Assembly: GCA_017305715.1 (NCBI GenBank)
Contig: JAFKKG010000030.1
Coordinates: 3,728 to 67,727, forward strand
Direction: 5' to 3'
From: Hyphomicrobiales bacterium
GTDB lineage: Bacteria; Pseudomonadota; Alphaproteobacteria; Rhizobiales; Xanthobacteraceae
Length of the DNA: 64,000 bases
This document shows, in pieces, positions 31,136-50,562 of the stretch. Each line of letters begins with the position of its first letter. The first letter of the stretch is position 1. Position numbers and translations under genes: made by a program. The notes beneath the pieces are model-generated. The model was not told where the DNA came from, did no database searches, and saw nothing but the letters and a program-made list of their open reading frames with translations.

Positions 31136-31592
31136 GCCGTTCTCCCCCGAAATGTTGACGAGCCTGTTCCTGGTCCGGCCACACAACCGTCGCCTTGCCT
31201 TCGGCGACCTGCCGATCGCCCACGAAGGCGGCAAGGTCGCAATCGATGCCGGGCTGGGCGCTGTCGTCCCTGCGCGAACTCACGGTCACGATCGTCGTGA
31301 CGGTATCGCCCGGCCGGACCGGCGACAGGAACCGCGCCGCGACGCGGCTGACGCTGCCGCGCGGGCCGGCGCGATCGGTCAGCGCGCGGCACATGAAGGC
31401 CATCGTCAGCATGCCATGTGCGATCACCCCGCCGAGCTTGGCGTCGACCGCATAGTGATGATCGTAGTGGATCCGGTTGAAGTCGCCCGAAGCGCCGGCA
31501 TAACGGACGAGCTGCGTGGTCGTGACGGGACCGCAGGCCGCCTCGAACCGCGAGCCGACTTCGAAGGTGGCGAGATCGGGCAGGGAAATCAT
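31128..31592 (-). CDS. MaoC-like (R)-hydratase, catalytic subunit
   Basis: YAGASGDFNRIHYD, IAHGMLTM, RFLSPVRPGD. Confidence 0.88.
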   Translation of the reverse strand: MISLPDLATFEVGSRFEAACGPVTTTQLVRYAGASGDFNRIHYDHHYAVDAKLGGVIAHGMLTMAFMCRALTDRAGPRGSVSRVAARFLSPVRPGDTVTTIVTVSSRRDDSAQPGIDCDLAAFVGDRQVAEGKATVVWPDQEQARQHFGGERHG

Positions 31593-33213: not shown

Positions 33214-33223
33214 CGGTGTCTCC

Positions 33224-34573: not shown

Positions 34574-35295
34574 GTGGTCGCTCCGGCGAGACGCTGCAGC
34601 TTTCCGCTGACGTTGGTGTCCTTCGCGATCGCGGCCGCGGCAAGCATGTCGGCGTCCGAGATATCGCGCAGCAGCTCCTTCAGCGAACGGAGGATTGTCC
34701 CGGAGGCGGCGAGCGCGTCGGCCAAGGCCGTCGTCTCGGCGCGGAGCGTCGCCTGCGGCACCGCCTTCACGAGGCCGAGCCGCATCGCGTCGTCTGCCGA
34801 GACCGGCTTGGCAGTGGCCAGGATCTCGAAGGCGCGCGCGTACCCGACGCGGCGCAGCAGGGGAGGTGCCACGAGAGCCGGTATCATGCCGTGGCGGATT
34901 TCGGGGAAGGACAGGATCGCGTCATCCGCGCACAGCGCCATGTCGCAAGCGAGAGTCAGGCCGAAGCCTGCTCCAAGCGCAAAACCATGGACCTCGGCGA
35001 TGACGGGCTTGCGGAGTTGCCACGGCGCGAGCAGCAGGCGCGACATCAACTCCGCATGATGGCCGATCGCCCCGGCATCCTTGAGGCCGCTTGCTTCGCG
35101 CAGGTCGGCTCCGGCCGAGAAGCCGGCGCCGGTGCCCGCGAGGACGACGACGTTGACCGTCTCGTCTCTTTCAGCCCGCTCGAATTCGCTTAGCAGGGCT
35201 TCGATCGTACGGTGATTCAGCGCGTTCCGTTTGTCCGGCCGGTTCAGCACCAATCGGCGCACCGCGCCGCTGTCATCGACGAGCAGCTCAGGCAC
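34570..35295 (-). CDS. Enoyl-CoA hydratase/isomerase family protein
   Basis: LNRPDKRNAL, FSAGADL, VHGFALGAG, FPEIRHG. Confidence 0.88.
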   Translation of the reverse strand: MPELLVDDSGAVRRLVLNRPDKRNALNHRTIEALLSEFERAERDETVNVVVLAGTGAGFSAGADLREASGLKDAGAIGHHAELMSRLLLAPWQLRKPVIAEVHGFALGAGFGLTLACDMALCADDAILSFPEIRHGMIPALVAPPLLRRVGYARAFEILATAKPVSADDAMRLGLVKAVPQATLRAETTALADALAASGTILRSLKELLRDISDADMLAAAAIAKDTNVSGKLQRLAGATT

Positions 35296-36859
35296 CGATC
35301 GGCTCCCGGCCTGCGGCCTCGCGGCCGGCAATGCGGCCGCCGATCATGCACTCGGCGAGATTGCCGCCGCTGAGATAGAGATGGCCGAAGACCGATCCCA
35401 ATTCGCCGGCGGCGTAGAGGCCGGGGATCGCCTCGCCGAACGGGTTGAGGACTTCTTGCCGGACGTTGTGGACCGGCCCGCCTTGTGTGTTGATGACGAG
35501 CGGCCAGACCTGTCCGACATAGAAGGGCGGCGTATCGAGCGGCACCATGGTGTCGGGACGCCGGCCAAAGCCTTCGTCGTCGCCGGCGGTGCAGGCCCGA
35601 TTCCAGGTCGCGATCTCCTGGTTCAGGATCTCGGGATCGACTCCGATGCCTTGCGCCAACGCGTCCCAACTGTCGAACCGCCGGAAGAATCCGAGTTCGA
35701 TCTCCCGGGAATTATCGGCACTCCATTCGTACCAGCCGTCACGCCCGTTGATCGCGCAGCGTCCGAGCGGATACATCCGGCGACCCTTCTCGTCGAAGAC
35801 GATATGAGCGGGGATGCGGGGGAAGTCCTGGATCTTCGAATCGTAGAGATCGAGCGGACGAACGCCGAAATCGCCGGGGTAGGGCGGATATTCGTCCATG
35901 AAGCGGCGGCCGGTCTTGTCGAGAAGAATCCAGGCGAGCCGCGGGAGTTGCTTGCCTCCGGCCGGACGTCCCTGCTGGTCGACGACGCCGAGATCCGAGG
36001 TGCTCTCCGGATGTCCGGGATGCCACATCGGAATCGCCTTGAGATACAAACCATAGGGATAGGACGGATCCGGGTGACGGAAGCCGTAAGGTCCGTGATA
36101 GTGCCACATGTGCCAGAGCGCGGCCCCGACCTCCTGGGCCATCGCGATACCGTCGCCCGTATTGCCGAGGAACGAAGCCGGGATCACGGGATCGGCCTGC
36201 AGGAAATTCTGCTTCATTTCGGAATTCGCCTCGAAGCCGCCACAGGCGAGAATGACGCCGCGTCGCGCGCGAACGCGGCGCTGCTGTCCGTCCGCTTCGA
36301 CCACGACGCCGCAGACCCTGGCTCCCTCGCGGATCAGGCGCCGGACCGGGTGTCCCAGGTGGACGGCAATGGCGCGGGTCTGCATATTGTCTTCGAGGAC
36401 CTTGAACAGTCGGCATCCCGGCCGAATTCCGCGCACCGCGTGGAAGGAGGACGCGCCTTCGATCGCCGGGACCTCCGCCACCTCGCAGTAACCGAGCGCT
36501 TCCGAACCCGGCAGCGGATAATTGCCTCTTGCCGGCGTGACCTTCACGGTGGCACCGCTCACCTCGGCAAGCGTGCGCACCCAGTCGGAGACTTCTGTCA
36601 TGCCGTCCGCAAGGACGCGCAGCAGGTCATCCGGCGTCCGTCCGCCGCAGGTCGCCTTGAGATAGTCGAAAGCGGCATCGGCCTCGAATGCGATACGGAT
36701 TCCGCCGGCCGACACGATCGAGAGACCGCCGGGATCGGGCATCTTCTCAAAGACGGCGACCTGCGCTCCGGCATCGTGCGCCGCGATGGCAGCAGCCGCT
36801 CCCGCGGCGCCGAGGCCGACCACGACGACATCGACTTCCAGCTCCGTCATGTCTGTCAC
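35288..36859 (-). CDS. FAD-dependent oxidoreductase, FAD_binding_2 family (3-ketosteroid dehydrogenase/fumarate reductase flavoprotein-like)
   Basis: DVVVVGLGAAG, VILACGGFEAN, NTGDGIAMA, NTQGGP, IPGLYAAGE, GGNLAECM. Confidence 0.85.
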   Translation of the reverse strand: MTDMTELEVDVVVVGLGAAGAAAAIAAHDAGAQVAVFEKMPDPGGLSIVSAGGIRIAFEADAAFDYLKATCGGRTPDDLLRVLADGMTEVSDWVRTLAEVSGATVKVTPARGNYPLPGSEALGYCEVAEVPAIEGASSFHAVRGIRPGCRLFKVLEDNMQTRAIAVHLGHPVRRLIREGARVCGVVVEADGQQRRVRARRGVILACGGFEANSEMKQNFLQADPVIPASFLGNTGDGIAMAQEVGAALWHMWHYHGPYGFRHPDPSYPYGLYLKAIPMWHPGHPESTSDLGVVDQQGRPAGGKQLPRLAWILLDKTGRRFMDEYPPYPGDFGVRPLDLYDSKIQDFPRIPAHIVFDEKGRRMYPLGRCAINGRDGWYEWSADNSREIELGFFRRFDSWDALAQGIGVDPEILNQEIATWNRACTAGDDEGFGRRPDTMVPLDTPPFYVGQVWPLVINTQGGPVHNVRQEVLNPFGEAIPGLYAAGELGSVFGHLYLSGGNLAECMIGGRIAGREAAGREPIGA

Positions 36860-38391
36860 GGCATGATCCGTCGCTTGAAGCCGGGCACGACGCGATCGGC
36901 CGTGCAGTCCAGGGTATGAATGATGACCTGGCGCGTTTCGGCCGGATGGATGACGTCGTCGATCAGTGCCATCTCGGCGGCGAGATAGGCGGAGGATTCC
37001 GCTTCGACTTTCTTGAGAATCTCGGCGCGCTTGGCGGCCGGATCGGCCGCTCTGGCGATCTCCTTGCCGTGGACGAGTTCGACGCCGGCTGCGGTGCCCA
37101 TCACGTCGAACCGCGCCGTCGGCCAGGCCACGATGCGGTCCGGCTTGGTCGATTTGCCGCCGAGCGCGATGTAGGCGAGCCCGATCGCCTTGCGCAGGAT
37201 GATGGTGACTTTCGGTGCGGTCGCGCTGACGATCGAATTCAGCAGTTGCGAGGCCAGCACGACCATGCGCCGATCCTCGATATCCGGGCCGACCAGGAAG
37301 CCGGGACAATCGACCAATGAAATAATCGGGATGTGGAAAGCGTCGCAGATGTCGATGAACCGACGCGCCTTGACCGCTGCCTTCTCGTCGAGCGCGCCGG
37401 CGAGCTGCATCGGCTGGTTCGCCACGAGGCCAACCGATCGGCCCCCGATCCGAGCCCAGGCCGTGATCAGATTCGGGCCGTAGTTCTCCTTGTATGGCGT
37501 GAGCTTGCCGTCATCGACGATGAGGCGCAGGAGCTTGCGCATGTCGTAGGCGCGCCGATGATTGTCAGACACGAGCGCGGTGATCTCGCGCCGTCCTTCT
37601 TCGGTGTCGATGGGCGCGGGGCTCGATGGCCGGATCGGCGGAAACTCGTCGCTGCTCGACGGAAAATAGGACAAAACCTCGCGGATCGCGGCGATGCTGT
37701 CGGCATCCGTCTCACCGAGATGGTCGGCGAGGCCGCGCTCGGTCGCCACCTTGTCGGCGCCGCCGATCTCTTCGGCACTGACCTCGAGGCCGATGCCGAC
37801 GCGCACCACGGCGGGACCCGACATTCCCATGAAGCCGGTTCGTGTGATGGTGACGAAATCGGATTGCGCTGCCGTGAAGGACGGTCCGCCGAAACAGGCG
37901 CCCATCAGGCCCGCCACCTGCGGCACCACGCCCGAGAGCAGAAAATGTTCGCGGAAGCGGACGCCCATGCCCGCGGCGACCGCGCCGTTGTTCTCCTGGA
38001 AACGCCCGGCGCCAGCCTCCTGCAACGCGATGAAGGGCTTGCGATGCGCAAGGGCGAGTTCGCGAATCCGCGCAATCTTTGCTTCCGCCACCCGTCCGCG
38101 GGTGCCGGCGAGAACGGTGGCATCCTCGGACACCACGTAGACGATCCGTCCGTCGATCCGCCCCGAACCTGCCACGAGACCGTCCGCCGGGGTCCGGTCG
38201 CGCAGGCCAGGATGCTGACTGCGACCCTGGACACCGATTTCCTGGAAGCTCCCGTTATCGAGGAGCAAATCGAGACGCTCCCGCGCGCTGAGCTTTCCCG
38301 CGGCGTGCAGACGTTCGAGAGCCTCCGGGCCGCCCATGAGTCGGGCCACCCTTCTTCTCTCGGCAAGTTCCTCCTCGGTCGCTTTATCCAT
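36856..38391 (-). CDS. Acyl-CoA carboxylase carboxyltransferase subunit (PccB/LiuB-like)
   Basis: GKLSARERLDLLLD, PADGLVAG, AGTRG, VANQP, DCPGFLVG, IDDVIHPAETR. Confidence 0.9.
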   Translation of the reverse strand: MDKATEEELAERRRVARLMGGPEALERLHAAGKLSARERLDLLLDNGSFQEIGVQGRSQHPGLRDRTPADGLVAGSGRIDGRIVYVVSEDATVLAGTRGRVAEAKIARIRELALAHRKPFIALQEAGAGRFQENNGAVAAGMGVRFREHFLLSGVVPQVAGLMGACFGGPSFTAAQSDFVTITRTGFMGMSGPAVVRVGIGLEVSAEEIGGADKVATERGLADHLGETDADSIAAIREVLSYFPSSSDEFPPIRPSSPAPIDTEEGRREITALVSDNHRRAYDMRKLLRLIVDDGKLTPYKENYGPNLITAWARIGGRSVGLVANQPMQLAGALDEKAAVKARRFIDICDAFHIPIISLVDCPGFLVGPDIEDRRMVVLASQLLNSIVSATAPKVTIILRKAIGLAYIALGGKSTKPDRIVAWPTARFDVMGTAAGVELVHGKEIARAADPAAKRAEILKKVEAESSAYLAAEMALIDDVIHPAETRQVIIHTLDCTADRVVPGFKRRIMP

Positions 38392-38424
38392 GCGATCCCC
38401 TCACTGTGGGTGCAATACTACAGG

Positions 38425-38450
38425 ATTGTGTGTATATCAAGGGACACAAT
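38425..38450. promoter_or_regulatory. Putative operator in divergent promoter region (MocR-motif site A)
   Basis: ATTGTGTG-N10-GACACAAT inverted repeat in an AT-rich 134-bp spacer. Confidence 0.55.
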
Positions 38451-38525
38451 TTGGGGAATATGATCTAGACAAAGATCGAAATTGTTAGCTAGTGATGGAG
38501 ACAGGCGTGACCCAGGGGAGCAATT

Positions 38526-38744
38526 GTGTCGACAGAGATTAAGGCAGAGATCGCCGGCATCGTCTTCGAGATTCTCGTTGAGCAAGGCGCTCGTATCTCG
38601 GCCGGCGGGACAATTCTGGTGATCGAATCGATGAAAATGGAAATCCCGGTGGATAGCCCGGGTGAGGGCGTCGTCGCCGAACTTTGCGTCTCCGCCGGCG
38701 ACGTCGTCGCTGTCGGCCAGGTTCTGGCGCGGATCAAGGAGTGA
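38526..38744 (+). CDS. Biotin carboxyl carrier protein (stand-alone)
   Basis: IESMKMEIPV biotinylation motif; 72 aa; GTG start after GGGGAG. Confidence 0.9.
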   Translation: MSTEIKAEIAGIVFEILVEQGARISAGGTILVIESMKMEIPVDSPGEGVVAELCVSAGDVVAVGQVLARIKE

Positions 38745-38747
38745 TTC

Positions 38748-39914
38748 ATGGACTTTCAATTCACCGATCGGCAGCGCGAACTCATCGATCACGCCGGTGA
38801 GCACTATCAACGGTCGCTCAAGCAACTGGCTTCCGATCACAGCCGCGAGGGTATCGCGCGGTTGCGCGGCAAGATGGCCGAGGCGGGGCTGCTCGGTCTC
38901 AATATGCCGGAGGAGTATGGCGGGGCCGGCCTGCCTCTTCTCGATACGCTCCTCGTCATCCAGAAGCTGCAATCCTGCGCCTCGATCGTCGGCGCTCTGG
39001 CGCATCGCAGTTCGACCGGGGCGATCGGGGCCATCCTCGAACTTGGGACACCGCAGCAAAAGTCTTTCTTCGTCGGCGGCGTCTGCCGCGGCGAGTTCGG
39101 CGTGAGCATCGGCATCACGGAGCCGGAAGCCGGGTCGGCTGCGACGGCGATGAAAACCGCTGCGCGTCACGACGGCAACGATACCGTCGTGCTGAACGGC
39201 AAGAAGCAGTTCGTCAGCTTCGTCGACCACAACAGCTTCACGCTCACCTATTGCCGTTTCGGCAGCACGGGAAAGCCCGCCGATATCGGAGCGGTGATCG
39301 TGCCGCATGATGCGCCGGGCTTCTCGCACAGCCAGGGCGGGATCAACATGGCGGATGAGAGGCTGTTCGAGCTGTTTTTCGATGACTGCCGCGTGCCCGC
39401 CCAGAATGTGCTTCTGAACGGCAATGCCTTCGGGCGGCTGATCAGCGTCTATAACGCCGAACGACTCGGGAGCATCGCGCGGATGCTCGGATCGGCGCAA
39501 GCCTCGTTCGAACTCGCCGTCGACTACGCGAAAGAGCGGCGTCAGTTCGGCCGCGAGATCGCGGACTTCCAGGGCGTGCAATGGATGCTGGCCGACATGA
39601 AGGTGAAGCTCGAGGCCGCCCAGCTGCTGACCTATCGGGCGGCGTCGAATGCCGGCCACGGCCTGCCGAGCCGCAGCGAGGTCTCGATCGCGAAGGTCTA
39701 TACCGCGCAGGCGGCTCGCGAGATCTGCGACGATGCGCTCCAGATCCATGGCGCCAATGGCTACATGAAGGAATTCCCGCTCGCCCAACGCTACGCCGAA
39801 GTCCGTGGCGGCTCGATCTATGGTGGGACGATCCAGATCCACAAGAACATGATCGCGGGCGATCTGCTGGGCCGCTCGAACAACCAATGGAAGCGCGCCG
39901 AGAAGGCGGGCTGA
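38748..39914 (+). CDS. Acyl-CoA dehydrogenase family protein (motifs resemble the 3-sulfinopropionyl-CoA desulfinase clade)
   Basis: ITEPEAGSAA, RRQFGREIADFQGVQWMLADM, LQIHGANGY; SSTGAIGAI and YNAERLG; IYGGT rather than IYEGT. Confidence 0.85.
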   Translation: MDFQFTDRQRELIDHAGEHYQRSLKQLASDHSREGIARLRGKMAEAGLLGLNMPEEYGGAGLPLLDTLLVIQKLQSCASIVGALAHRSSTGAIGAILELGTPQQKSFFVGGVCRGEFGVSIGITEPEAGSAATAMKTAARHDGNDTVVLNGKKQFVSFVDHNSFTLTYCRFGSTGKPADIGAVIVPHDAPGFSHSQGGINMADERLFELFFDDCRVPAQNVLLNGNAFGRLISVYNAERLGSIARMLGSAQASFELAVDYAKERRQFGREIADFQGVQWMLADMKVKLEAAQLLTYRAASNAGHGLPSRSEVSIAKVYTAQAAREICDDALQIHGANGYMKEFPLAQRYAEVRGGSIYGGTIQIHKNMIAGDLLGRSNNQWKRAEKAG

Positions 39915-39918
39915 CGCC

Positions 39919-41466
39919 GTGGCCGGCGATATCGATGTCGGTGCGCTTGCAGGATTGATGGCGCAGCGTCCGCGTTCGCTCGCTGTTTTCGACATCCGCG
40001 AGGCAGGCGAAGCCGAGCAGGGGCATCTGCCGTTTGCGACCTTCCTGCCGCGCCGACTGATCGAATGGCGGATCGGAGAACTCGTTCCGTCCACCGCACA
40101 GGACATCGTCGTCTATGATGACGGCGCGGGGGACGGACGTGCGGCGCTTGCCGCCGCAACGCTCGGCGAATTCGGCTATCGCGCTGTCCGTATCCTCACC
40201 GGTGGCCTCGGCGCCTGGAGGGCTGCGGGCCGTCCCGTCGCAACCGGCGTGAACGTTCCCAGCAAGCGTTTCGGGGAAGAGATCCTCGAACATGACGGCG
40301 TGAAGTCGATCGATGCCGATCGTCTCGCGCAGATGCAAGCCGCCGGCGAGACCTTCGAGCAATGGGATGTGCGCACGCCGGCCGAGTTCGGCCGCGCTAC
40401 GCTGCCCGGCAGCCGCAATGTTCCAGGCGTCGAGATCGCCGGCCGGGCGGCGGAGGCGGCGCGCGACGGCCGGCTGGTCGTGGTTCACTGCGCGGGGCGG
40501 ACGCGTGGGGTGATCGCCGCCGCGACCCTCGCGCTGCTTGGCGTTGAGCGGGTCGTCACGCTGGAGAACGGCACGATGGGCTGGCGCCTTTCCGGCCGCA
40601 GCCTCGTGCCGGGAGAACGCAGCGGGGCGTCGTCCGATGGCGACGCCGCCGTCGATGGTGCCGTCGCCAATGCCTTGGCGGATGCGAGTGGCGTGTTGCG
40701 TCTCGCGCCCGCTGAAGTCCGGCACCGGGCCAGCCGGCAAGCGTCGGAGCCTGTCATCCTCGTGGATGTGCGGAGCGAGGAAGCCTATTTGGCGGGGCAT
40801 ATCGCGTCCTCCTGCTCGCGGCCCGGCGGGCAGCTCATTCAGTGCACGGACGAAGTTCTCGCGGTTGAAGCGGTACCCGTCATTCTCGTCGACGACGGTA
40901 ACGGGCGCGCGGTCATGGCCGCCCATTGGCTGCGCCGGATGGGATTTCCGGAGGTCGCATTGCTCGAAGGAGGTATTCCGGCCTGGCGCGCCGCGGGCCT
41001 TCCACTCGCAAGAGGTCCGGCCGCGATCCCGACATGGCTCATCGGCCTGCGCGACAGGGTCCCTTCGATGGCACCGAACCGCCTCGACGGGACGTCCCGC
41101 ATCGTGCTCGACGTCGGCACGAGCCGCGACTTCAAGAAGGGTCACATTCCCGGCGCGCGCTGGCTGCCCCGGGGTTGGCTCGAGGCGCGGCTCGGCGAGA
41201 TCGAGCATCACGATCGCGAGATGGTTGTGACGGCCGCGGATGAAAGCCAAGCTATCCTGGCGGCCGCGACGCTGCTCCGGCTCGGACACCGCGCCAGTTG
41301 GCTCGCGGGCGGAAATGCCGGCTGGGTCGCGCAGGGCGGGACCCTGGAGTCGACCGAAGATCTTGCTCTCGATCTGCCGCCGGATGTCGTCGATCCGCCC
41401 TATCTGAAGGGAGAGGCGGGGATGCGGGCCTATCTCGAATGGGAGATCGCCCTGACGGAGCGATAA
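39919..41466 (+). CDS. Four-domain rhodanese-type sulfurtransferase (PA2603-like)
   Basis: Four repeats of D[IV]R/DVG...GH[LI]P; VNVPSKRFGE; HCAGRTR active-site loop in domain 2. Confidence 0.85.
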   Translation: MAGDIDVGALAGLMAQRPRSLAVFDIREAGEAEQGHLPFATFLPRRLIEWRIGELVPSTAQDIVVYDDGAGDGRAALAAATLGEFGYRAVRILTGGLGAWRAAGRPVATGVNVPSKRFGEEILEHDGVKSIDADRLAQMQAAGETFEQWDVRTPAEFGRATLPGSRNVPGVEIAGRAAEAARDGRLVVVHCAGRTRGVIAAATLALLGVERVVTLENGTMGWRLSGRSLVPGERSGASSDGDAAVDGAVANALADASGVLRLAPAEVRHRASRQASEPVILVDVRSEEAYLAGHIASSCSRPGGQLIQCTDEVLAVEAVPVILVDDGNGRAVMAAHWLRRMGFPEVALLEGGIPAWRAAGLPLARGPAAIPTWLIGLRDRVPSMAPNRLDGTSRIVLDVGTSRDFKKGHIPGARWLPRGWLEARLGEIEHHDREMVVTAADESQAILAAATLLRLGHRASWLAGGNAGWVAQGGTLESTEDLALDLPPDVVDPPYLKGEAGMRAYLEWEIALTER

Positions 41467-41473
41467 TGCAAAC

Positions 41474-42856
41474 TCAGATGATGGTCGCCGACATGATCGG
41501 CCGGCTGTCGAGCATGCCCTTCAGTGTGATCAGGCCCCGATGCAGCAGGTTATCCCCGGCGCCTGGACTGAGTGACAGCCGTACCGCGCCAGGCGGGCGT
41601 ACGCCGTCGGTTGCGAAATTGTCGGCGGCGACCACGGCCACGCCCTTTCGGCGCGCGGCCGCCTCGAAATCCAGTGGCCGCCATTCCGGCGGCAGGCTCA
41701 ACCACATATGGACCGAAGCCGGATGAGAGCGAACCCGATCGGGTCCGAGAAAGTCGACCGCGAAGGCGACACGCTCGGCGATGATCTCGCGCATTCGCGC
41801 GATCACCCGGTCAAGTTCGGGATGGCTGAGGATGCTCGATACCATCTCGCCGACGAACGGCGTGGGGCCGAGCGTCATCGCGTGGAGCGTGTTTGACAGG
41901 GCCTCGTTGAGCGCGGGCGGGCAGACGATAAACCCGGTCCGGAAAGCCGGGCTCAGCCCCTTGGCGAGGCCGGTCGAATAGACGGTTCTCTCGGGCGCGA
42001 GCGCAGCGAGCGGTGCCGGGCGCTCCGCCAAAATTGCGGCCTGGGCGTCGTCCTCGAACAGCGTGAGCCTGAGCTCTTCGGCGACATCCGCGATCGCCTG
42101 CCGGCGTTCGAGGCTCATCGTGGCGATCGTCGGATTGTGCAGGGTTGTTTGAAGCGCGACGACGCTGGCGCCGGTTCGCGCGACGGCTTCGCGCAACGCC
42201 TCCGGACGCATGCCCTCCCGGTCCATGCCGACGCCGACGAGGCGCAGTCCCTGCAGTCCCGCAAGCGCCTTCAGGCCCGGATAGGTCAGTTCATCCGTCA
42301 GGATTGTGTCGCCGGGCCCGGCGAGTGTCGCCAGCGTGACATGGATCGCCTGCTGTACGCCGGCGCAGATCAAGACGTCTTCCGCACGCACCGAGAGCCC
42401 CAGCCGGCCAAGCCATTCGGCTGCGACGGCGCGATGGGCCGGGAGCCCGGCCGCGGGCGGATATTTCTGGAGCGGCAGAAGGGCTGCGCGCTGGGCCAAG
42501 GTCGTCAACGACGCCGAGACGAGATCGCCAAGGCCTGCGATTGGCGCGCGGTAGCAGGAAAAATCGACCGTACGCTCGAGTGCGGCAGGCCGGAATTCCA
42601 GTCGCTGTCCGACATTCCGTCCCGCTTTCACGAAGGTGCCACGACCGACCTCGCCTGTGACGAGATTCTTCTCGCTGGCCAGCGCATAGGCGCGCGTCAC
42701 CGTTCCGACCGTGACACCCAGACTTTCGGCCAGATCCCGTTGGGGCGGCAGCTGAGTGCCAGGAGGCAATTCGCCATTGTCGATCGCTTGCGCGATCGCA
42801 GTCGCGATCACGATGTAGCGGGGGCCTTCGAGATCGCGGATATCAGGTGTCCACAT
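41474..42856 (-). CDS. MocR/GabR family regulator (GntR wHTH plus PLP aminotransferase-like domain)
   Basis: GPRYIVIA, LPPQRDLAESLGVTVGTVTRAY, GEVGRGTFV, TLHNPT, FEDD, GLAKGLSPAFRTG. Confidence 0.92.
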   Translation of the reverse strand: MWTPDIRDLEGPRYIVIATAIAQAIDNGELPPGTQLPPQRDLAESLGVTVGTVTRAYALASEKNLVTGEVGRGTFVKAGRNVGQRLEFRPAALERTVDFSCYRAPIAGLGDLVSASLTTLAQRAALLPLQKYPPAAGLPAHRAVAAEWLGRLGLSVRAEDVLICAGVQQAIHVTLATLAGPGDTILTDELTYPGLKALAGLQGLRLVGVGMDREGMRPEALREAVARTGASVVALQTTLHNPTIATMSLERRQAIADVAEELRLTLFEDDAQAAILAERPAPLAALAPERTVYSTGLAKGLSPAFRTGFIVCPPALNEALSNTLHAMTLGPTPFVGEMVSSILSHPELDRVIARMREIIAERVAFAVDFLGPDRVRSHPASVHMWLSLPPEWRPLDFEAAARRKGVAVVAADNFATDGVRPPGAVRLSLSPGAGDNLLHRGLITLKGMLDSRPIMSATII

Positions 42857-42937
42857 GGGTATGTCCGTCGCCGTGCCTCTGAGAGAAAAATCTGGCGCAT
42901 AGGGAATGCATCTTAGCATATAATGACATTGACGTCG

Positions 42938-42968
42938 ATTGTATCCATGTCCTAATCTTGGATGTATC
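42938..42968. promoter_or_regulatory. Putative MocR operator (site B) between divergent mocR and CoA ligase genes
   Basis: ATTGTATC at 42938 and a second TGTATC 23 bp downstream. Confidence 0.5.
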
Positions 42969-43013
42969 GATCCAGCCTCGGGGGGCTGGGAGGGACAGTA
43001 CGACGGATTGTGG

Positions 43014-44660
43014 ATGGCGGCACCAGGAAATCCCTTTGTCGGCGCAACCTACGGCTCGGCCTTGAGGTGGCTCGCGGATCAATTCGGCCCGCGCGAGGCG
43101 TTGGTCTTCGGAGGCGAGAGATACACGTTTGCCGAGGTGAAACGTCGGGTCGACGAGGCCTCCCGCCGCTTCGAGGCGCTCGGTTTGCGGCCCGGCGATC
43201 GCGTGGCGTTGTGGCTGCCCAATCGGCCGGAATTCCTCTGGTGCTGGCTGGGTGCATCGCAAATCGGCTTGATCACCGTCGTGCTTAATACGCGCCTCAA
43301 GCTGCCGGAGGTCCGCTATCAGCTCGCGCAATCCGATAGTAATGCGCTGATCATTCCGGGTCGCGGTTCATTTCGCGATTTCCCCGCCGAAATTGCCGAA
43401 TTGTGCCCGGAGGTGCGGGTACAGTCGGCGCAAGCTCTGGCGACGGCCGAATTACCCGGACTTCGGCGTATCGTGACGCTCGATACCGGGCTCGGCTGGC
43501 CGGGACTGGTCGAATGGTCGCCATTCGGCCGCGCGACAGAGGCGGCGGCGCCCCCTGCCTATGCGGAAAATCCCAACGAGCCCGCCCTGATTTCCTATAG
43601 CTCCGGGACCACGGCGCTTCCGAAGGGGGCGTTGATTACACATTGCGTGTGGCGCAAGGCTTTCGACATCGGCGAGCGCGCTGATCTCACCTCCGAAGAT
43701 CGCCTTTATCTCTGCATCCCGCTGTTCGGTTCGATGGCGATGATGAATGGTGTCCTGCCGTTTTGGGCCCGCGGTGCGTCGGTCGTTCTCGCGGAACGGT
43801 TCGAGGTGCGCGAATTCCTGCGGGGCGTTTCGCAAGAGCGCTGCACAGCGACGCATTTCCTGCCGCCGATGGTCGAATCGCTCGTCGCCTCGTCCGAGCG
43901 CGCCGATTTCGACCTGTCGCGCCTGCGACTTGGCTGGGTGCTCAGCAGTGAGCGCCGAATTTTGGAATTGGTCGCGCACGATCTTGCCGTTCCCGGCATG
44001 ATGACCGGATACGGCCTCACGGAAACGACGACCGTTCTGACGCGCAACCGGTGGGATGATCCACTCGAGACGCGGATCACGACGCAGGGCTATGCGCTGC
44101 CGGACGTCGAACTGCGTGTCGTCGATCCCGAATCGGGCCGCGATGTCGCGACGGGCGACACAGGGGAGATCTGGGCCCGCGGCTATTGCATCACGCCCGG
44201 CTATTTCAGGAAGCCTGAAGAGAGCAGCAAGGCGCTAACGCCGGACGGATGGTTCAAGACGGGCGATGGCGGCTCGCTGGATGAGACGGGGCGGCTGACG
44301 TTTCGCGGGCGCCTTGGCGACGGTTACAAAAGCCGCGGTTTCAACGTCTCGCCGGCCGAGATCGAAGCCGTGCTCCTCGAGCACGCCGACGTCGAGGCGG
44401 CTGCCGTGGTCGGCGTCGCGCATCCGCGTTGGGGGCAGGTGGGCATCGCCTTCGTGGTCCCAGTCGAAGGCCGCGCTGCGGATCCGGCGGAACTCGCCAA
44501 ATATCTCAAGCCGCGCCTGTCGTCGTTCAAGCTTCCGGAACTGATCACGTGCGTGTCCGAACTCCCGCTGACGGCCGGGACCGGAAAAATCCAGAAATTC
44601 GTTTTGCGGGCGGAGGGAGAGCGTCTGCTCGCCGGCCGGCTGGCCGTCTCGCCGGGATGA
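43014..44660 (+). CDS. Acyl-CoA synthetase (AMP-forming)
   Basis: YSSGTTALPKG, GYGLTET, GEIWARG, WFKTGDGG, GFNVSPAEIE, KIQK. Confidence 0.9.
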   Translation: MAAPGNPFVGATYGSALRWLADQFGPREALVFGGERYTFAEVKRRVDEASRRFEALGLRPGDRVALWLPNRPEFLWCWLGASQIGLITVVLNTRLKLPEVRYQLAQSDSNALIIPGRGSFRDFPAEIAELCPEVRVQSAQALATAELPGLRRIVTLDTGLGWPGLVEWSPFGRATEAAAPPAYAENPNEPALISYSSGTTALPKGALITHCVWRKAFDIGERADLTSEDRLYLCIPLFGSMAMMNGVLPFWARGASVVLAERFEVREFLRGVSQERCTATHFLPPMVESLVASSERADFDLSRLRLGWVLSSERRILELVAHDLAVPGMMTGYGLTETTTVLTRNRWDDPLETRITTQGYALPDVELRVVDPESGRDVATGDTGEIWARGYCITPGYFRKPEESSKALTPDGWFKTGDGGSLDETGRLTFRGRLGDGYKSRGFNVSPAEIEAVLLEHADVEAAAVVGVAHPRWGQVGIAFVVPVEGRAADPAELAKYLKPRLSSFKLPELITCVSELPLTAGTGKIQKFVLRAEGERLLAGRLAVSPG

Positions 44661-44741
44661 GCGAGAAGGCCGAGTTCAACCGAATCGACCGCAGTGTCGG
44701 GAAAAAGCAAACCGGGGCGTAACGCTCGCAAGGAGGGAAGA

Positions 44742-46283
44742 ATGTTCAGTCGCCGCGATTTCGGAGCTGCGATCGGTGCGGCCGCAGTTCTTGGAACGAT
44801 TGGCAGGGCCAATGCGCAATCCAGCCCCAAGCCTGCCGTCGACAAGGACACCCTTGTTATCGCGCTGGAGAAGGAGATTCAGAGTCTCGACGCCCTGGTG
44901 ACAGCCAGCGGCGATTCGCAGCGCTATGCGCTCCAACTGTTCGATTCGCTCTACGGATTCGATCTCAAGGGCCGGACGGTCCCCCGCATGGCGACGGAGG
45001 TGAAGGTCTCCGACGACGGGCTCAGCTATACCTACAAGCTTCGTCCCGGCATTCGCTTTCACAATGGCGATCCGCTGACCTCCGAGGACGTCAAGTTCAC
45101 GATGGAGCGGGTGATCGATCCCGCCGCCAAGAGCACGCGACGGCCGTTCTTCGCGCCGATCATCGCCGGCGTCGAGACGCCCGACCCGTTGACGGTCGTC
45201 TTCAAGCTCAAGCAGTCCGACGGCGCCTTCCTCAACAAGATCGCCGGCTTTCTGTTCATCGTCCCGAAGGCCTACACCAGCGGGTTGCCCAACACGGATG
45301 CCTTTGCCTCTGCGCCTATCGGCTCGGGTCCCTACAAGTTGAAGCGCCACAATATCGGTCAGACGCTCGAGCTGGAGCGGTTCGAGGATTTCTATGGCGA
45401 GAAGCCGGGCGTCAAAAACCTCATCATGAAGATGATCCCCGAGGGATCGACACGCGTGAATGCGCTGCTGACGGGGGAGGTCGATCTCGTCGTGCAGGCG
45501 CCGCTCAACGAAAAGGAACGGCTCAGCAAGACGCCGGGGCTGAAGACGCTGACCAACCCGGTCTCCGCCCCGATGCATGTCAGGCTCTATTCAGACGATG
45601 CCTCCTTGCCGGTCTCCAAGCGCGACGTGCGTCTCGCCCTGAACCACGCTCTTGATTCCAAAGCGATCATCCGCTCGGTTTATTACGGGGTCGGTCAGCC
45701 GATGGGAACGTTCATCTCGGCATTTTACCCTTACGGGTCAGATCCCGACACCAAGCCCTATGCGTACGATCCCAAGAAGGCCCGCGAGCTTCTCAAGAAG
45801 GCGGGCTATCCGGATGGTTTCCAGCTCAAGCTCTACAGCGCCAACGACCATCCCAAGGAATTGGCGGAAGCCATCGCCGCCTATTGGGGCCAGGTCGGCG
45901 TGAAGACCGAAATCCTGCGCATCGACTACGCCGCCTGGAGCCGGCTCAACAATACCCACAAGAGCGGCCCGGCGACGATCACGCAATTCACCAATGCCAT
46001 CTACGATCCGATCCACCCGGTGGCCGGCTCTTTCTCGAAGAACGGGACCTGGTCCAACTACTACAATCCGGAAGTCGAAGCGCTGATCGCGAAGCTTGAT
46101 TCCACGGTCGGTGCCGAGAAACGCGGCGCCGTCTTCCGCGAAATCGGGCGGCTGCTTCACGACGATGCGGCGGCGGTCTTCATCACCGAGCTGTTTCACC
46201 TGTTCAGCCACAAGAATGGGCTGCAATGGAGCATGCAGGAGGGGTCCGGATTCCTGAACCTCCGGCAAGTGTCCTGGTCGTGA
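44742..46283 (+). CDS. ABC substrate-binding protein, family 5, paralog 1 (Tat-like SRRDF signal)
   Basis: FHNGDPLTSEDVKF, IGSGPYK, RLNNTHKSGP; AGGAGG RBS. Confidence 0.9.
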   Translation: MFSRRDFGAAIGAAAVLGTIGRANAQSSPKPAVDKDTLVIALEKEIQSLDALVTASGDSQRYALQLFDSLYGFDLKGRTVPRMATEVKVSDDGLSYTYKLRPGIRFHNGDPLTSEDVKFTMERVIDPAAKSTRRPFFAPIIAGVETPDPLTVVFKLKQSDGAFLNKIAGFLFIVPKAYTSGLPNTDAFASAPIGSGPYKLKRHNIGQTLELERFEDFYGEKPGVKNLIMKMIPEGSTRVNALLTGEVDLVVQAPLNEKERLSKTPGLKTLTNPVSAPMHVRLYSDDASLPVSKRDVRLALNHALDSKAIIRSVYYGVGQPMGTFISAFYPYGSDPDTKPYAYDPKKARELLKKAGYPDGFQLKLYSANDHPKELAEAIAAYWGQVGVKTEILRIDYAAWSRLNNTHKSGPATITQFTNAIYDPIHPVAGSFSKNGTWSNYYNPEVEALIAKLDSTVGAEKRGAVFREIGRLLHDDAAAVFITELFHLFSHKNGLQWSMQEGSGFLNLRQVSWS

Positions 46284-46298
46284 TGCGTTTTGCGCCAA

Positions 46299-46344
46299 AT
46301 TGTCACTAGCATTGTATCGATAAGCTAGATACAATTGACACAAT
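46299..46344. promoter_or_regulatory. Putative MocR operator array (site C)
   Basis: Perfect ATTGTATC-N9-GATACAAT (46311-46335) flanked by ATTGTCAC (46299) and GACACAAT (46337). Confidence 0.65.
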
Positions 46345-46356
46345 CAGAGAGCCAAA

Positions 46357-47160
46357 ATGGCTCTCCAATCGGATGAGACAATGTCAGGGCGGAAACACGG
46401 GCGCGTCGCGCTCATCACCGGTGGCGCCGGTGGCATCGGTTTCGCGACAGCCGAGCGGCTGGCGCGCGACGGCGCCGCAATCGCGATTTGCGATCTCGAC
46501 GGCGCGGCGGCGCAGGAAGCCGCCGCCCGGATCAATGCGAGCCATGGCGTGCCGGCGCGGGGCTATCAGGCCAATGTCGGCGAGCCCGATGCGGTCGAAC
46601 AACTCGTCGCGGAGGTGGTGCGGGAGCTCGGATCGCTCGATATCCTCGTGAACAATGCGGGGGTCACCCGCGACAACCTCGTCCACAAGATGAGCCTGCA
46701 GAACTGGGACGACATCATGTTCGTCCATCTGCGCGGGGCGTTCCTGTGCAGCAGCGCCGCGCAGCGGGTTATGGTGGAGCGCGGCTGGGGGCGGATCGTG
46801 AATCTGTCCTCGACGTCCGCGCTCGGCAATCGCGGTCAGGTCAACTACTCGACGGCCAAGGCGGGCTTGCAGGGCTTCACGCGATCGCTCGCGCTCGAAC
46901 TCGGCCGCTTCGGCGTTACGGTGAACTGCGTCGCACCGGGCTTCATCGACACGGAAATGACACGCAAGACGGCGACGAGGCTCGGAAAAGATCCGGAGGC
47001 CTACAAGGCGGAGCGCGCGAAGGGCATCGCGGTCGGGCGTGTCGGGGTGCCGGCCGACGTCGCCGCCGTGATCGCTTTCCTGGCCGACGACGAGGCGTCC
47101 TACGTGTCCGGCCAGGTCATCTATGTCAGCGGCGGGCCGGAAACCCGTCGCGGCGGCTGA
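46357..47160 (+). CDS. SDR oxidoreductase, FabG-like 3-oxoacyl-CoA/ACP reductase
   Basis: ITGGAGGIG, LVNNAG, NYSTAK, VAPGFIDT; start may be 46381. Confidence 0.88.
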   Translation: MALQSDETMSGRKHGRVALITGGAGGIGFATAERLARDGAAIAICDLDGAAAQEAAARINASHGVPARGYQANVGEPDAVEQLVAEVVRELGSLDILVNNAGVTRDNLVHKMSLQNWDDIMFVHLRGAFLCSSAAQRVMVERGWGRIVNLSSTSALGNRGQVNYSTAKAGLQGFTRSLALELGRFGVTVNCVAPGFIDTEMTRKTATRLGKDPEAYKAERAKGIAVGRVGVPADVAAVIAFLADDEASYVSGQVIYVSGGPETRRGG

Positions 47161-47171
47161 GAGGGGACATC

Positions 47172-48713
47172 ATGACAACCGGCATCGCGCGGCATCTTCG
47201 GACGCTCTCTCTTGTGAGCGTGCTCCTCGCCCCTGTTCCGGCGGCCGCAATCGGCGGCAAGCCGGCCGTCGACCGGGACACGGTCGTCATGGCGGTCAGC
47301 AAGGAGATATTCAATCTCGATGGGCAGGTCACCGCCAGCGGCGATTCCCAACGCTACGGCTGGCAACTCTACGACACGCTCTACGCGCTCGACCGCAACG
47401 GCGACATCGTGCCGAGGCTGGCGGCGGGCATGACCCGGTCCGAGGACGGTCTCACCTATACGTTCACGCTGCGGACCGACGTGAAGTTTCACAATGGCGA
47501 GTTGATGACGGCCGAGGATGTGGCCTACTCGATGGATCGGATTCTCGATCCAGCCGTGAAAAGCACCCGCCGTCCCGCCTTCGCGCCCGTCGTCGCCAAA
47601 TCGGAAGCCAAGGACGCGAAGACGGTCGTCTTCACGCTCAAGGAGCCGGACGGGGCGTTCCTCAACAAGATCGCCGGCTATCTCTTCATCGTGCCCAAGG
47701 CCTATACGCAATCGCTCGGAAGCCCCGAGGCGTTTGCGCGCGCGCCCATCGGCACCGGCCCGTATCGTTTCGTCGAGCAGAAGATCGGCCAGTTCGTCAC
47801 ATTCGAACGCTTCGATGACTACTTTGGTCCGAAACCCGGCATCAAGCGCCTGATCATGCGCCTGATCGAGGAACCCTCGAGCCGGGTGAATGCGCTCCTG
47901 ACAGGCGAAGTCGATCTGAGCGACGGCATTCCGACCGCCGAGATCGAGCGGCTCAAGAAGACGCCCGGCCTCACGGTCCATTCCGTCCCGATCGGGAGCC
48001 CGCTCGGGGTTCGCCTCTACGCCAACGATCCGTCGCTGCCGATCTCGAAGGCGAAGGTGCGGCTTGCCTTCAACTACGCCATCGACGCCAACGCCTTGAT
48101 CAAGAACGTGCTGCACGGCGCCGGGGCGCCGCTCACGAGCTATATCTCGTCCTACTATTCCTATGGCGTGAACCGCGACCTCAAGCCCTACGGCTACAAT
48201 CCCGGCAAGGCGAAACAACTGCTGAAAGAGGCCGGCTATCCCAACGGCTTCGAGATCTCGATCTATTCGTCGAGTGATTGGCCGAAGGAGATCGCCGAGA
48301 CATTGGCCGCCTATTGGTCCCAGGTCGGCGTCAAGGCGAAGATTCAAAGGATCGACTACGCGGCCTGGAGCCGGCTCAACAACACCCACAAGAGCGGGCC
48401 GATGACCTTGATGCAGATGTCGAACGCCATCTTCGACCCGATCCATCCGGTGACGGGTGGGGCGAGCAAGGCCGGCACCTGGTCCGACTACTCGAATCCC
48501 GAGATCGAAGAGCTCATCCTCGAGGCGAACAAGACCGCCGACCGGTCCGAACGCGATCGGGTCTTCAAGCGGATCGGCGCGATCCTGCACGAGGATGCGC
48601 AGGCCGTGCTGATCACCGAGATATTCTATGTCTACGGCGCCGACAGCGCGTTGGATTGGGCGCCCCAGCCGGGCATCGCCTGGTACGACCTGCGCACGAT
48701 CCGCTGGAAGTGA
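47172..48713 (+). CDS. ABC substrate-binding protein, family 5, paralog 2
   Basis: FHNGELMTAEDV, IGTGPYRF, RLNNTHKSGP; GAGGGG RBS. Confidence 0.9.
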   Translation: MTTGIARHLRTLSLVSVLLAPVPAAAIGGKPAVDRDTVVMAVSKEIFNLDGQVTASGDSQRYGWQLYDTLYALDRNGDIVPRLAAGMTRSEDGLTYTFTLRTDVKFHNGELMTAEDVAYSMDRILDPAVKSTRRPAFAPVVAKSEAKDAKTVVFTLKEPDGAFLNKIAGYLFIVPKAYTQSLGSPEAFARAPIGTGPYRFVEQKIGQFVTFERFDDYFGPKPGIKRLIMRLIEEPSSRVNALLTGEVDLSDGIPTAEIERLKKTPGLTVHSVPIGSPLGVRLYANDPSLPISKAKVRLAFNYAIDANALIKNVLHGAGAPLTSYISSYYSYGVNRDLKPYGYNPGKAKQLLKEAGYPNGFEISIYSSSDWPKEIAETLAAYWSQVGVKAKIQRIDYAAWSRLNNTHKSGPMTLMQMSNAIFDPIHPVTGGASKAGTWSDYSNPEIEELILEANKTADRSERDRVFKRIGAILHEDAQAVLITEIFYVYGADSALDWAPQPGIAWYDLRTIRWK

Positions 48714-48738
48714 TGGGTATCGAAGGCGAGATGCGGCC

Positions 48739-49656
48739 ATGCTCCGCTACCTGACACTCCGGATCGCGCAGTCGATCGTGACGGTGCTGCTGGTCACGAT
48801 GATCATCTTCGTGATCATCCGCCTGATCGGCGATCCGACCCATCTGATGCTGCCTCCCGAGGCGACGGAGGCGGATCGTGAGTTGCTGCGCCAGCAGATG
48901 GGCCTCTCCGATCCGGTCGCGGTCCAGTACTGGCGCTATCTGCTGCAATTGCTCCACGGCGATATGGGGATGTCCTATCGCTTCAGCCTGCCGGCGCTCG
49001 ATGTCGTGCTGGGGCGGATCGGTCCGACGCTTCTGCTCACGTGCACCTCGCTCGCGATCGGAATCCTGGTCGGCGTGCCGCTGGGTGTCGCCTCGGCCGT
49101 TCGCCCCGACGGCTGGATCGATTTTGTCGCCAAGGCGATCGCCCTGTTCGGACAGGCGGCGCCGCCCTTCTTCTTCGGGCTGATCTTCGTGCTTGTCTTC
49201 GCCGTTCAGCTCCGCTGGCTGCCGACGAGCGGCTATGGCGGTCCGCAATATCTCATTATGCCGGCGATCGCGCTCGGATGGTATTCCGCCGCCGGTCTGA
49301 TGCGGCTGACGCGTTCCAACATGATGGAGGTGCTCACCTCCGAATACGTCAGGATGGCCCGCATCAAGGGCGTGCCCGAGCGGGTCGTCGTATACAAGCA
49401 CGCGCTCAAGAACGCGGCGCTCCCGGTTCTCACCTTCGCCTCGCTCCAGTTCGGCATCCTGATGGGCGGCGCGGTATCGATCGAGTCCGTTTTCGCCTGG
49501 CCGGGAATGGGCAAGCTCATCCTCGATTCGATCGCCAATCTCGATTACGCGGTCGTTCAGGCGGCGGTGACCGTTTCCGCCCTGATGTTCACCGCGATCA
49601 ATCTCGCGGTGGATCTCCTCTACGCCTATATCGACCCGCGTATCCGCTATGCGTGA
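48739..49656 (+). CDS. ABC permease, DppB-like
   Basis: IGDPT, RLTRSNMMEVL..EYVRMARIKG, ESVFAWPGMG. Confidence 0.9.
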   Translation: MLRYLTLRIAQSIVTVLLVTMIIFVIIRLIGDPTHLMLPPEATEADRELLRQQMGLSDPVAVQYWRYLLQLLHGDMGMSYRFSLPALDVVLGRIGPTLLLTCTSLAIGILVGVPLGVASAVRPDGWIDFVAKAIALFGQAAPPFFFGLIFVLVFAVQLRWLPTSGYGGPQYLIMPAIALGWYSAAGLMRLTRSNMMEVLTSEYVRMARIKGVPERVVVYKHALKNAALPVLTFASLQFGILMGGAVSIESVFAWPGMGKLILDSIANLDYAVVQAAVTVSALMFTAINLAVDLLYAYIDPRIRYA

Positions 49657-50560
49657 CGCCCCCTCGCCAGACCGACCGGTCCTGCAGCGGACGGGCGCGA
49701 AGGATCGCACGCTTGCGGCGAGCGCGTCGGAGCGCTCCTCGCGCTGGCTCGCATCGCTGCAGATCTGGGTCGCAATCATCCTCCTTGCCATCGTCTTCGG
49801 CTCAGCATTGCTGGCCGCCTTCGTGACGCCTTACGATCCGAACGAGATCGGCCTCGACAAGGCCCTTCAGGCTCCCTCCGTGCAGCATTGGTTCGGGACC
49901 GATCAACTCGGACGCGATGTCCTGTCGCGGGTGATCTGGGGCGGACAGGTCTCGCTGTTCCTTGCCGCCTGCGCGGTCGCGCTCGCGGGAGCTTTCGGCA
50001 CGCTTCTCGGCCTCGTCGCGGGCTATTTCGGCGGTGCCGTCGACAGGGCGGTGATGTGGATCGCCGACGTGCAGTTTTCGCTGCCGGCCGTCATTCTTGC
50101 GCTCGTCCTGGTCGGCGCCGTCGGCCCGAGTTTCACCAACATCGTCGTTGTCCTCAGCCTCGCCAACTGGGCGCGTTTCGCGCGCGTCATCCGCTCCGAA
50201 GCGCTCTCGCTCAAGAGCCGCGATTTCGTGTTGTTGGCCAAGCTCGGAGGGGCATCGCCGCTCAGGATCATCGCCTATCACATCCTGCCGAACGTGCTCG
50301 GCACCTTCATCGTCCTTGCGACGCTGGATGTCGGCCTGATCATTATCCTGGAAGCCACGCTGTCCTTCCTCGGGCTCGGCGTGCAGCCGCCCGATCCCTC
50401 CTGGGGCACCATGATCGCAGACGGTCGCGGCTATCTCGAAAGAGCCTGGTGGATTTCCGTGTTCCCCGGTCTTGCACTCATGGCGACCGTGCTGTCCGGC
50501 AATCTGCTGGGCGATGCGCTGCGCGACAGGCTCAATCCCAGCCAAAGGCGGAGATGGTAG
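49649..50560 (+). CDS. ABC permease, DppC-like
   Basis: HWFGTDQLGRDVLSR, EATLSFLGLG, WGTMIADGR. Confidence 0.9.
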   Translation: MRDAPSPDRPVLQRTGAKDRTLAASASERSSRWLASLQIWVAIILLAIVFGSALLAAFVTPYDPNEIGLDKALQAPSVQHWFGTDQLGRDVLSRVIWGGQVSLFLAACAVALAGAFGTLLGLVAGYFGGAVDRAVMWIADVQFSLPAVILALVLVGAVGPSFTNIVVVLSLANWARFARVIRSEALSLKSRDFVLLAKLGGASPLRIIAYHILPNVLGTFIVLATLDVGLIIILEATLSFLGLGVQPPDPSWGTMIADGRGYLERAWWISVFPGLALMATVLSGNLLGDALRDRLNPSQRRRW

Positions 50561-50562
50561 GA

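Follow-up and report, generated by a model that had tools for sequence, protein, structure and literature searches.

A 64,000-nucleotide stretch of the genome of a Hyphomicrobiales bacterium (C16:3728-67727, hereafter the window; genome size 7.45 Mb, 63% GC) carries a catabolic gene cluster together with a gene for a MocR/GabR-type regulator, and three promoter regions of this cluster share a short box of the type ATTGT[AG]TC, or its complement GA[TC]ACAAT. Here we confirm that these boxes are a real, locus-specific cis-element. They most likely constitute the operator of the cluster's own MocR, a sister of the EhuR/EnuR regulators that would act as a local repressor released by an amine; we put the probability of this reading at about 0.8, and we infer binding, regulatory sign and effector from sequence and by analogy. 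The motif had earlier been proposed as a probable MocR regulon operator from the letters of the window alone. That original prediction is supported by the specificity of the box within the genome, by its conservation, by its tracking of regulator orthologues and by a half-site in common with EhuR/EnuR, with binding as its deduced part.

Boxes and putative promoters in three intergenic regions

The boxes lie in intergenic regions A (38392-38525), B (42857-43013) and C (46284-46356), which together comprise 361 bp with a GC content of 40-51%. All boxes that had been listed for 38425-38450, 42938-42968 and 46299-46344 are present. In the following list, N with a number denotes a spacer of that length, and scores in bits refer to the matrix described in the next section.

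38425..38450, operator A: inverted pair ATTGTGTG-N10-GACACAAT (TTGT-N16-ACAA), between the divergent carboxyltransferase and biotin carboxyl carrier protein (BCCP) operons
38412..38440, minus strand, putative carboxyltransferase promoter: -35 TTGATA (38440-38435), 17-bp spacer, -10 TATTGC (38417-38412)
42938..42945, plus strand, operator B, box B1: ATTGTATC, upstream of both mocR (81 bp to its start) and the ligase gene (68 bp to its start)
42962..42968, plus strand, box B2: ATGTATC, direct repeat of B1, 24 bp downstream, 12.4 bits
42925..42958, plus strand, putative ligase promoter: GACATTGAC box (42925-42933), -35 TTGACG (42929-42934), -10 TAATCT (42953-42958)
46299..46344, operator C, four boxes: ATTGTCAC (46299-46306); ATTGTATC-N9-GATACAAT (46311-46335), inverted, N15 between pentamers; GACACAAT (46337-46344); between the genes for binding protein 1 and a short-chain dehydrogenase/reductase (SDR)

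Operator A appears to straddle the carboxyltransferase -35, with one box upstream of this hexamer and the other within the spacer, and B1 sits in the 18-bp spacer of the putative ligase promoter. An inverted partner of B1 at N15-16 was sought in the window and none was found; a pairing of B1 with the GACATTGAC box at 10 bp (32 bp in three other loci, L075, L077 and L078) is suggestive, and it is confounded by the coincidence of this box with the -35. Our promoter calls draw solely on conservation across genera, because strict sigma-70 consensus and terminator scans of regions A, B and C found no promoter.

A few further sequences in the window deserve mention. Copies of ATTGTGTC at 42303 and of ATTGTATC at 1048 lie within coding sequence and look like chance occurrences. 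Another ATTGTGTC, at 38523-38530, overlaps the GTG start of the BCCP gene and is kept in the closest relative, L021 (16.8 bits), but loci further removed lack it; it could be coincidental or an additional box particular to this lineage. Between operator A and the BCCP gene, a second conserved block (38463-38471) reads TTGTCTAGA or TGTCCAnA on the strand opposite to BCCP, and in locus L076 (14520-14540) it is a perfect palindrome, TTGTCTATAGACAA. This block could be an auxiliary box or a piece of the BCCP promoter.

A motif conserved across genera

Orthologous loci were found by protein search and exact-sequence look-ups. The resulting syntenic set comprises eight loci with 22 orthologous intergenic regions: the window; fully syntenic loci in Bradyrhizobium lablabi (L021, regulator 93% identical), an Enterovirga metagenome-assembled genome (L057, 75%), Xanthobacter sp. 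DSM 24535 (L075, 57%) and three assemblies from public sequencing runs (L076-L078, 57-59%); and a partial contig (L074, 72%). In an unbiased count of 8-mers on either strand, with one mismatch allowed, the top word was ATTGTATC, present in 20 of the 22 regions compared with a maximum of 11 in 20 shuffles. Iterative refinement yielded a 14-column matrix with the consensus cgaATTGTATCtAT and an information content of about 12 bits, in which the core of the box is TTGT/ACAA and the extended box ATTGTATCnAT. When the whole training loci (8-21 kb) were scored, matches of at least 12.5 bits were almost confined to regions A, B and C; B1 reaches 17.3 bits.

The geometry of region A is the most constant. 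All seven loci with this region hold an inverted TTGT-N16-ACAA pair with a span of 26 bp at the same offset, down to a regulator identity of 57%. The 16 bp between the boxes vary except for a TTGnnn hexamer (TTG in six of the seven loci; TTCACG in L076), and TTGnnn-N17-[TA]ATTG[CT] occurs at the same place in all seven. We read these two conserved hexamers as the putative -35 and -10 of the carboxyltransferase promoter.

Region B contains one strong box, [AT]T[TC]GT[AC][TC][CG], in eight of eight loci (ATCGTATC in L074 and ATTGTACG in L076), which agrees with the claim that one site lies directly upstream of mocR. A GTCAATGT[CA] block is likewise found in all eight loci (GTCAATGTC in seven, GTCAATGTA in L078), and holds the putative TTGAC[AG] -35 of the ligase gene. 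In loci of the window type, B1 lies in the 18-bp spacer of TTGACR-N18-TAAYYT. In L075, L077 and L078 the box is 32 bp from the GTCAATGT[CA] block, a shift of 22 bp that puts it immediately behind a TATAAT-like -10. The region B box thus keeps its sequence yet shifts against the promoter, the behaviour of a factor-binding site and not of a promoter element. The TGTATC direct repeat that had also been assigned to region B did not stand: B2 is seen only in the window and L021 and is absent from L057 and L074-L078, which makes it a probable lineage-specific or weak auxiliary box, and it is GACATTGAC that is conserved instead. As for region C, one box, [AT]TGTATC[TG]AT, occurs in all seven loci that have the region, and the window and L021 have up to four boxes including the N15 inverted pair. 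In the syntenic loci, the window among them, mocR is the sole regulator gene.

Specificity of the box within the genome

The word ATTGTRTC occurs eight times in the window, compared with 1.6 expected from shuffles. Genome-wide there are 103 occurrences (both strands, 7.45 Mb), seven of which fall within 7.9 kb at this locus where 0.11 would be expected (P about 3e-11). The paired form ATTGTRT-N11/12-AYACAAT is present twice in the whole genome, both times here, and matrix-scored inverted pairs are found genome-wide at this locus only. Two of the genome's three clusters with at least two ATTGTRT boxes within 45 bp are also located here; the third (ACACAAT, C49:118659) codes for the peptide DTINTIK of a binding protein and was rejected as chance.

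Regions A-C hold six matrix matches, compared with 0.06 in dinucleotide shuffles, and their match density is 16.6 per kb as opposed to 0.07 per kb in other AT-rich DNA of the genome, a difference of ~230x. The motif is therefore not a common word of AT-rich intergenic DNA. As a guard against circularity, the matrix was rebuilt without any site of this genome or of the 93%-identical relative L021. With this leave-out matrix B1 scores 15.6 bits, and regions A-C still account for five of the 100 genome matches of at least 14 bits (P about 2e-14).

The motif in rearranged loci of more distant regulators

Five loci with regulators 46-50% identical to that of the window (L079-L083) were held out, none of them being used in matrix building. 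These loci have a rearranged gene order and transporters of the MFS or TRAP type rather than ATP-binding cassette (ABC) systems, while the ligase, rhodanese, acyl-CoA (coenzyme A) dehydrogenases, MaoC, thiolase and biotin carboxylase parts are retained. Eleven of 13 matrix matches of at least 11 bits are intergenic in these loci, where intergenic DNA makes up 5.5% of the total (P about 1e-12), and one of the two "genic" matches lies 73 bp upstream of the next gene start. A strong box is found about 25 bp before mocR in L079 and L081. The mocR-ligase spacer of L080 (Azospirillum) has TTGT-N16-ACAA followed by GTCAATGTC, and the SDR-ligase spacer of L083 has TTGT-N15-ACAA. No regulator gene other than mocR is present in the held-out loci. 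Given that the held-out matches are intergenic and that boxes occur near mocR in rearranged loci, the motif travels with this regulator clade.

The regulator protein

41474..42856, minus strand, mocR: 460-residue regulator with a GntR winged helix-turn-helix (wHTH) and an aminotransferase fold (Pfam, NCBIfam)

The protein combines PF00392 GntR (residues 18-77, E = 3e-14) with PF00155 Aminotran_1_2 (residues 128-433, E = 7.5e-23), and an identical 460-residue protein is on record. It has the features of the MocR/GabR subfamily, namely the GntR wHTH, a fold-type-I aminotransferase-like domain, the conserved lysine, Asn, Asp and Arg of the predicted pyridoxal 5'-phosphate (PLP) site, and repeated boxes near its own gene. 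Its best sequence matches in the PDB are the aminotransferases MppQ and LysN, with whose catalytic "SFSK" lysine the lysine of its GLAK motif aligns. In an alignment of 11 sequences from this clade and from true EhuRs, on which the residue numbers are based, the PLP-site residues K300, N242, D271 and R307 are invariant, in keeping with the prediction that the PLP lysine is kept. R41, T53, R56, Y58 and the GEvGRG wing of the wHTH are also invariant between the two clades. N242, K300, F415, R427 and S429, invariant in both, correspond to N244, K302, F417, R429 and S431 of EnuR (PMC8739950); five of the six residues predicted for inducer use in EnuR are thus conserved.

The best NCBIfam model for the regulator is that of EhuR, NF052286, which it matches with 403.7 bits, under the cut-off of 480; its orthologues score 427-434. 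True EhuRs from Shinella, Mesorhizobium, Rhizobium and Aurantimonas reach 654-701 bits and are 31-37% identical to the window regulator. Based on this sub-cut-off score against those of the true EhuRs, sequence comparison places the regulator in a sister clade of EhuR/EnuR and not in EhuR itself. No protein in this genome exceeds the NF052286 cut-off. A second EhuR-like MocR paralogue (368.6 bits on the same model) is encoded on contig C4, with a direct repeat CTCGGTGCAA-N13-CTCGGTGCAA just upstream of its start (C4:92300-92420); this repeat looks like a different operator belonging to the paralogous regulator.

Proposed mechanism and alternatives

In the mechanism that we propose, each wHTH head of a MocR dimer would recognise a single box (ATTGTATCnAT, core TTGT). 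An inverted pair with 20-21 bp, or about two turns of the helix, between the centres of its pentamers would be the favoured full site, and other sites would combine one strong box with weaker direct or inverted partners. The sites would lie over core promoters, A on the carboxyltransferase -35 and B1 in the ligase spacer (or just after the -10 in other genera), with operator C immediately upstream of the SDR and transporter genes. At A, PLP-loaded MocR would repress both divergent operons; at B, it would repress the ligase unit and probably mocR itself; and at C, the SDR-transporter-monooxygenase unit. Release would follow once a primary-amine metabolite of the pathway has reacted with PLP on the conserved lysine to give an external aldimine, the mode of induction shown for EnuR. 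The regulon would be local, covering about 30-56.5 kb of the window, and would encode uptake and CoA-dependent breakdown of an organic acid that probably contains sulfur. Given binding, we regard repression, by analogy with EnuR, as somewhat better favoured than the opposite sign.

Several points weigh against this mechanism. Only one box is conserved across genera in regions B and C. The putative promoter hexamers fail the strict sigma-70 scan, and the term repressor stands on weak promoter calls and the EnuR analogy. Two RNA runs of a relative gave contigs too thin for transcript ends. The cluster enzymes include none that obviously forms or uses an amine. In L075, L077 and L078 the box of region C precedes a possible -35, a placement compatible with activation as well. 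Elsewhere in the genome, at C49:14810-14915, ATTGTATATGTACAAT (N6) and ATTGTTGTACGGATACAAT (N9) stand 44 bp apart between the genes for an AMP-dependent ligase and a divergent IclR-type regulator (family judged from the translation), and are probably the operator of the latter; with ATTGT-N6-ACAAT beside an IclR-type gene, the ATTGT/ACAAT pentamer is not exclusive to MocR.

These points bear on three other explanations. MocR could bind the same operator as an effector-dependent activator, like GabR at gabTD or TauR at the tau genes. Both of these characterised MocR members activate (PMC5320631), the conserved region C box of the three loci just named appears to lie immediately upstream of a TTGAAT hexamer that could serve as -35, and the promoters match the sigma-70 consensus poorly, as is common in activator-dependent promoters. 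However, the nearest characterised relative, EnuR/EhuR, is a repressor with operators over -35 and -10 (PMC8739950). Operator A is likewise centred on the -35 with one box in the spacer, and B1 lies in the spacer or right after the -10; both positions would occlude RNA polymerase, and we consider activation unlikely.

It is a good deal less likely that a factor encoded elsewhere, for instance a regulator of acyl-CoA catabolism of the IclR, TetR or FadR type, binds the boxes while MocR reads something else. Cores of the TTGT...ACAA kind are common among regulators of the GntR family and others, and an ATTGT-N6-ACAAT site lies beside the IclR-type gene on another contig. Yet the motif with the present spacing is exclusive to this locus, it follows the MocR orthologue into rearranged loci of other families with one box always upstream of mocR, no second regulator gene is conserved in the loci, and the half-site is identical to that of the nearest characterised relatives (PMC8739950). 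The notion that the boxes are no protein operator at all but promoter elements, remnants of small repeats or chance words in AT-rich spacers we find scarcely credible. GATACAAT does contain TACAAT, a near-consensus -10 hexamer, and the regions are AT-rich. Against this stand the excess over other AT-rich DNA and over shuffles; the restriction of conservation to boxes of 5-11 bp with diverging spacers and flanks, unlike a mobile repeat; the inverted geometry with its fixed span around a separately conserved -35 and -10 of different sequence; and the shift of the box relative to the promoter between genera.

The gene cluster and its putative pathway

Genes other than mocR are given below. The extent of the leftward operon is estimated from gene orientation and spacing on the basis of Pfam matches and open reading frames; the rightward genes were assigned with Pfam and NCBIfam, those below operators B and C also by synteny in L021, L057 and L075-L078.

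30083..38391, minus strand, leftward operon below operator A: carboxyltransferase (36856-38391), FAD_binding_2 oxidoreductase, enoyl-CoA hydratase, biotin carboxylase, thiolase, MaoC-like dehydratase, flavin mononucleotide (FMN) reductase and ABM monooxygenase (to ~30083), in this order
38526..41466, plus strand, rightward operon below operator A, comprising the next three genes
38526-38741, plus strand, BCCP
38748-39914, plus strand, acyl-CoA-dehydrogenase-fold protein; best NCBIfam model 3-sulfinopropanoyl-CoA desulfinase, under cut-off
39919-41466, plus strand, four-domain rhodanese
43014..56482, plus strand, rightward genes below operators B and C, comprising the remaining entries
43014-44660, plus strand, acyl-CoA ligase, divergent from mocR
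44694-46283, plus strand, binding protein 1 (family-5), followed by a 73-bp gap (region C) to the SDR gene
46357-47160, plus strand, SDR
to 56482, plus strand, downstream of SDR: binding protein 2, two permeases, two ATPases, an SfnB/DszC-like flavoprotein, an SsuD-like monooxygenase and binding protein 3

The span of 38425-46344 given in the original prediction thus holds for the three promoter regions, while its limit for the regulon was too narrow. The statement that the regulon encodes no aminotransferase proved correct, none being found in Pfam and NCBIfam scans of the cluster proteins.

The cluster of ~26 kb (window 32044-56482) is whole and in the same gene order in the Enterovirga metagenome-assembled genome and in the Xanthobacter strain. 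A search of 24 genomes of the same genus gave no regulator orthologue (best match 39% identical), and a metagenome scan returned only regulators of 37% identity or less. The lack of an orthologue in the same-genus genomes and the shared order in Enterovirga and Xanthobacter suggest that the cluster is accessory and horizontally mobile. It occurs in Bradyrhizobium, Enterovirga, Xanthobacter, Azospirillum and relatives, and in every case the regulator clade accompanies this set of enzymes. In L079-L083 and one further locus, the regulator invariably stands beside genes for an AMP-ligase, a four-domain rhodanese, acyl-CoA dehydrogenases and MaoC dehydratases, along with a thiolase or DUF35 pair, biotin carboxylase parts, flavin reductases and sometimes RibBA or BioY; the transporter beside the regulator clade is an ABC peptide-type, MFS or TRAP/TctC system, depending on the locus.

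None of the models for the cluster enzymes reaches its cut-off, the dehydrogenase-fold protein scoring 279 bits on the 3-sulfinopropanoyl-CoA desulfinase model as against a cut-off of 600, and literature searches for this gene combination found no paper describing it. The presence of a desulfinase-like dehydrogenase, a four-domain rhodanese, SfnB- and SsuD-like monooxygenases, an FMN reductase and a split biotin carboxylase probably points to an organosulfur acid that is processed in the form of its CoA thioester. The proposed route would consist of CoA activation, the desulfinase-like acyl-CoA dehydrogenase, the four-domain rhodanese, the split biotin carboxylase and the flavin monooxygenases. 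A bolder proposal, which we advance tentatively and hold to be rather doubtful, is that the MocR clade is devoted to sensing an undescribed route by which a sulfur-containing organic acid is broken down, with a new amine-bearing organosulfur metabolite as inducer. If this were true, operator and regulator would form a ready-made reporter for finding the substrate.

Comparison with known systems

As a class, the system is an ordinary local MocR regulon switch predicted by comparative genomics; what appears to be new is an EhuR sister with the same half-site at a different spacing, marking a conserved catabolic cluster. For the uncharacterised sister clade of EhuR/EnuR, our analysis defines an operator and a regulon precisely enough to be tested, and fragments with operator and promoter could be used as reporters to screen for the substrate and inducer of the organosulfur acyl-CoA cluster.

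In the MocR regulons reconstructed by Suvorova and Rodionov (2016; PMC5320631), two inverted boxes account for 20% of regulons and two direct boxes plus one inverted box for 32%. Mixed direct and inverted boxes are the commonest layouts, in line with the original prediction. The present case resembles those regulons in type of evidence and motif architecture and, as predicted here, in autoregulation and local extent. The terms "acyl-CoA", "rhodanese" and "Bradyrhizob" do not occur in the main text of that study, as distinct from its supplementary tables, and as far as this main text goes the orthologous group and its regulon appear to be undescribed. GabR of Bacillus subtilis shares with our regulator the GntR wHTH, a fold-type-I aminotransferase domain and the PLP lysine; its primary-amine effector forms an external aldimine, and its operator consists of repeated boxes whole helical turns apart (PMC5320631). 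GabR differs in its operator, direct repeats of the ATACCA type, and in activating gabTD, one product of which is an aminotransferase, whereas the window has an inverted pair as its main site, no regulated aminotransferase and a likelier repression.

The closest parallel is EnuR/EhuR/EutR of Ruegeria pomeroyi and Sinorhizobium meliloti. EnuR represses the catabolism of ectoine and hydroxyectoine in a PLP-dependent manner, its predicted operators overlap -35 and -10, and its inducers react through a primary amine with the PLP on Lys302 (PMC8739950). The consensus operator of EnuR/EhuR/EutR is the inverted repeat ATTGT-N6-ACAAT, ATTGTnnnnnnACAAT (PMC8739950, citing Suvorova & Rodionov 2016). Both systems have the same domain architecture and ATTGT/ACAAT half-site, and the PLP lysine is conserved along with N, F, R and S, the residues predicted to contact the inducer. 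In both, the operators lie over core promoters, putative ones in the window, and the gene stands beside its targets, predicted ones in the window, with a site in its own upstream region. In contrast, the pentamers of the window stand N15-16 apart (N16 in seven of seven loci at A, N15 at C) as opposed to N6, which is 9-10 bp or about one helical turn longer, and the box extension is ATC[GT]AT rather than CATGA. The regulon lacks ehuABCD, eutABCDE and doe genes, and has instead an acyl-CoA ligase, dehydrogenases, a carboxylase, rhodanese, SDR, a peptide-type ABC system and flavin monooxygenases.

Among the true EhuR loci analysed, L011 and L060 have ATTGT-N6-ACAAT directly ahead of the gene, and others have ATTGTCATGA...GACAATTGACATGA arrays ahead of the ehu operon that contain a pair at N15. 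Four loci (L039:11400-11450, L048:11410-11460, L024:11410-11460 and L058:11425-11475) show a conserved array, ATTGTCATGA-N5-TTTTG[AG]CAATTGACATGAT, between ehuR and the next operon. This layout, an N15 inverted pair plus a direct box with a TTGACA -35 within it, is broader than the N6 consensus in the literature. With N6 in some true EhuR loci and N15 in others, box spacing is already variable in the wider clade. The wider clade thus retains the ATTGT half-site but differs in box spacing and in the content of its regulons, which bears on how the flexible MocR dimer reads DNA.

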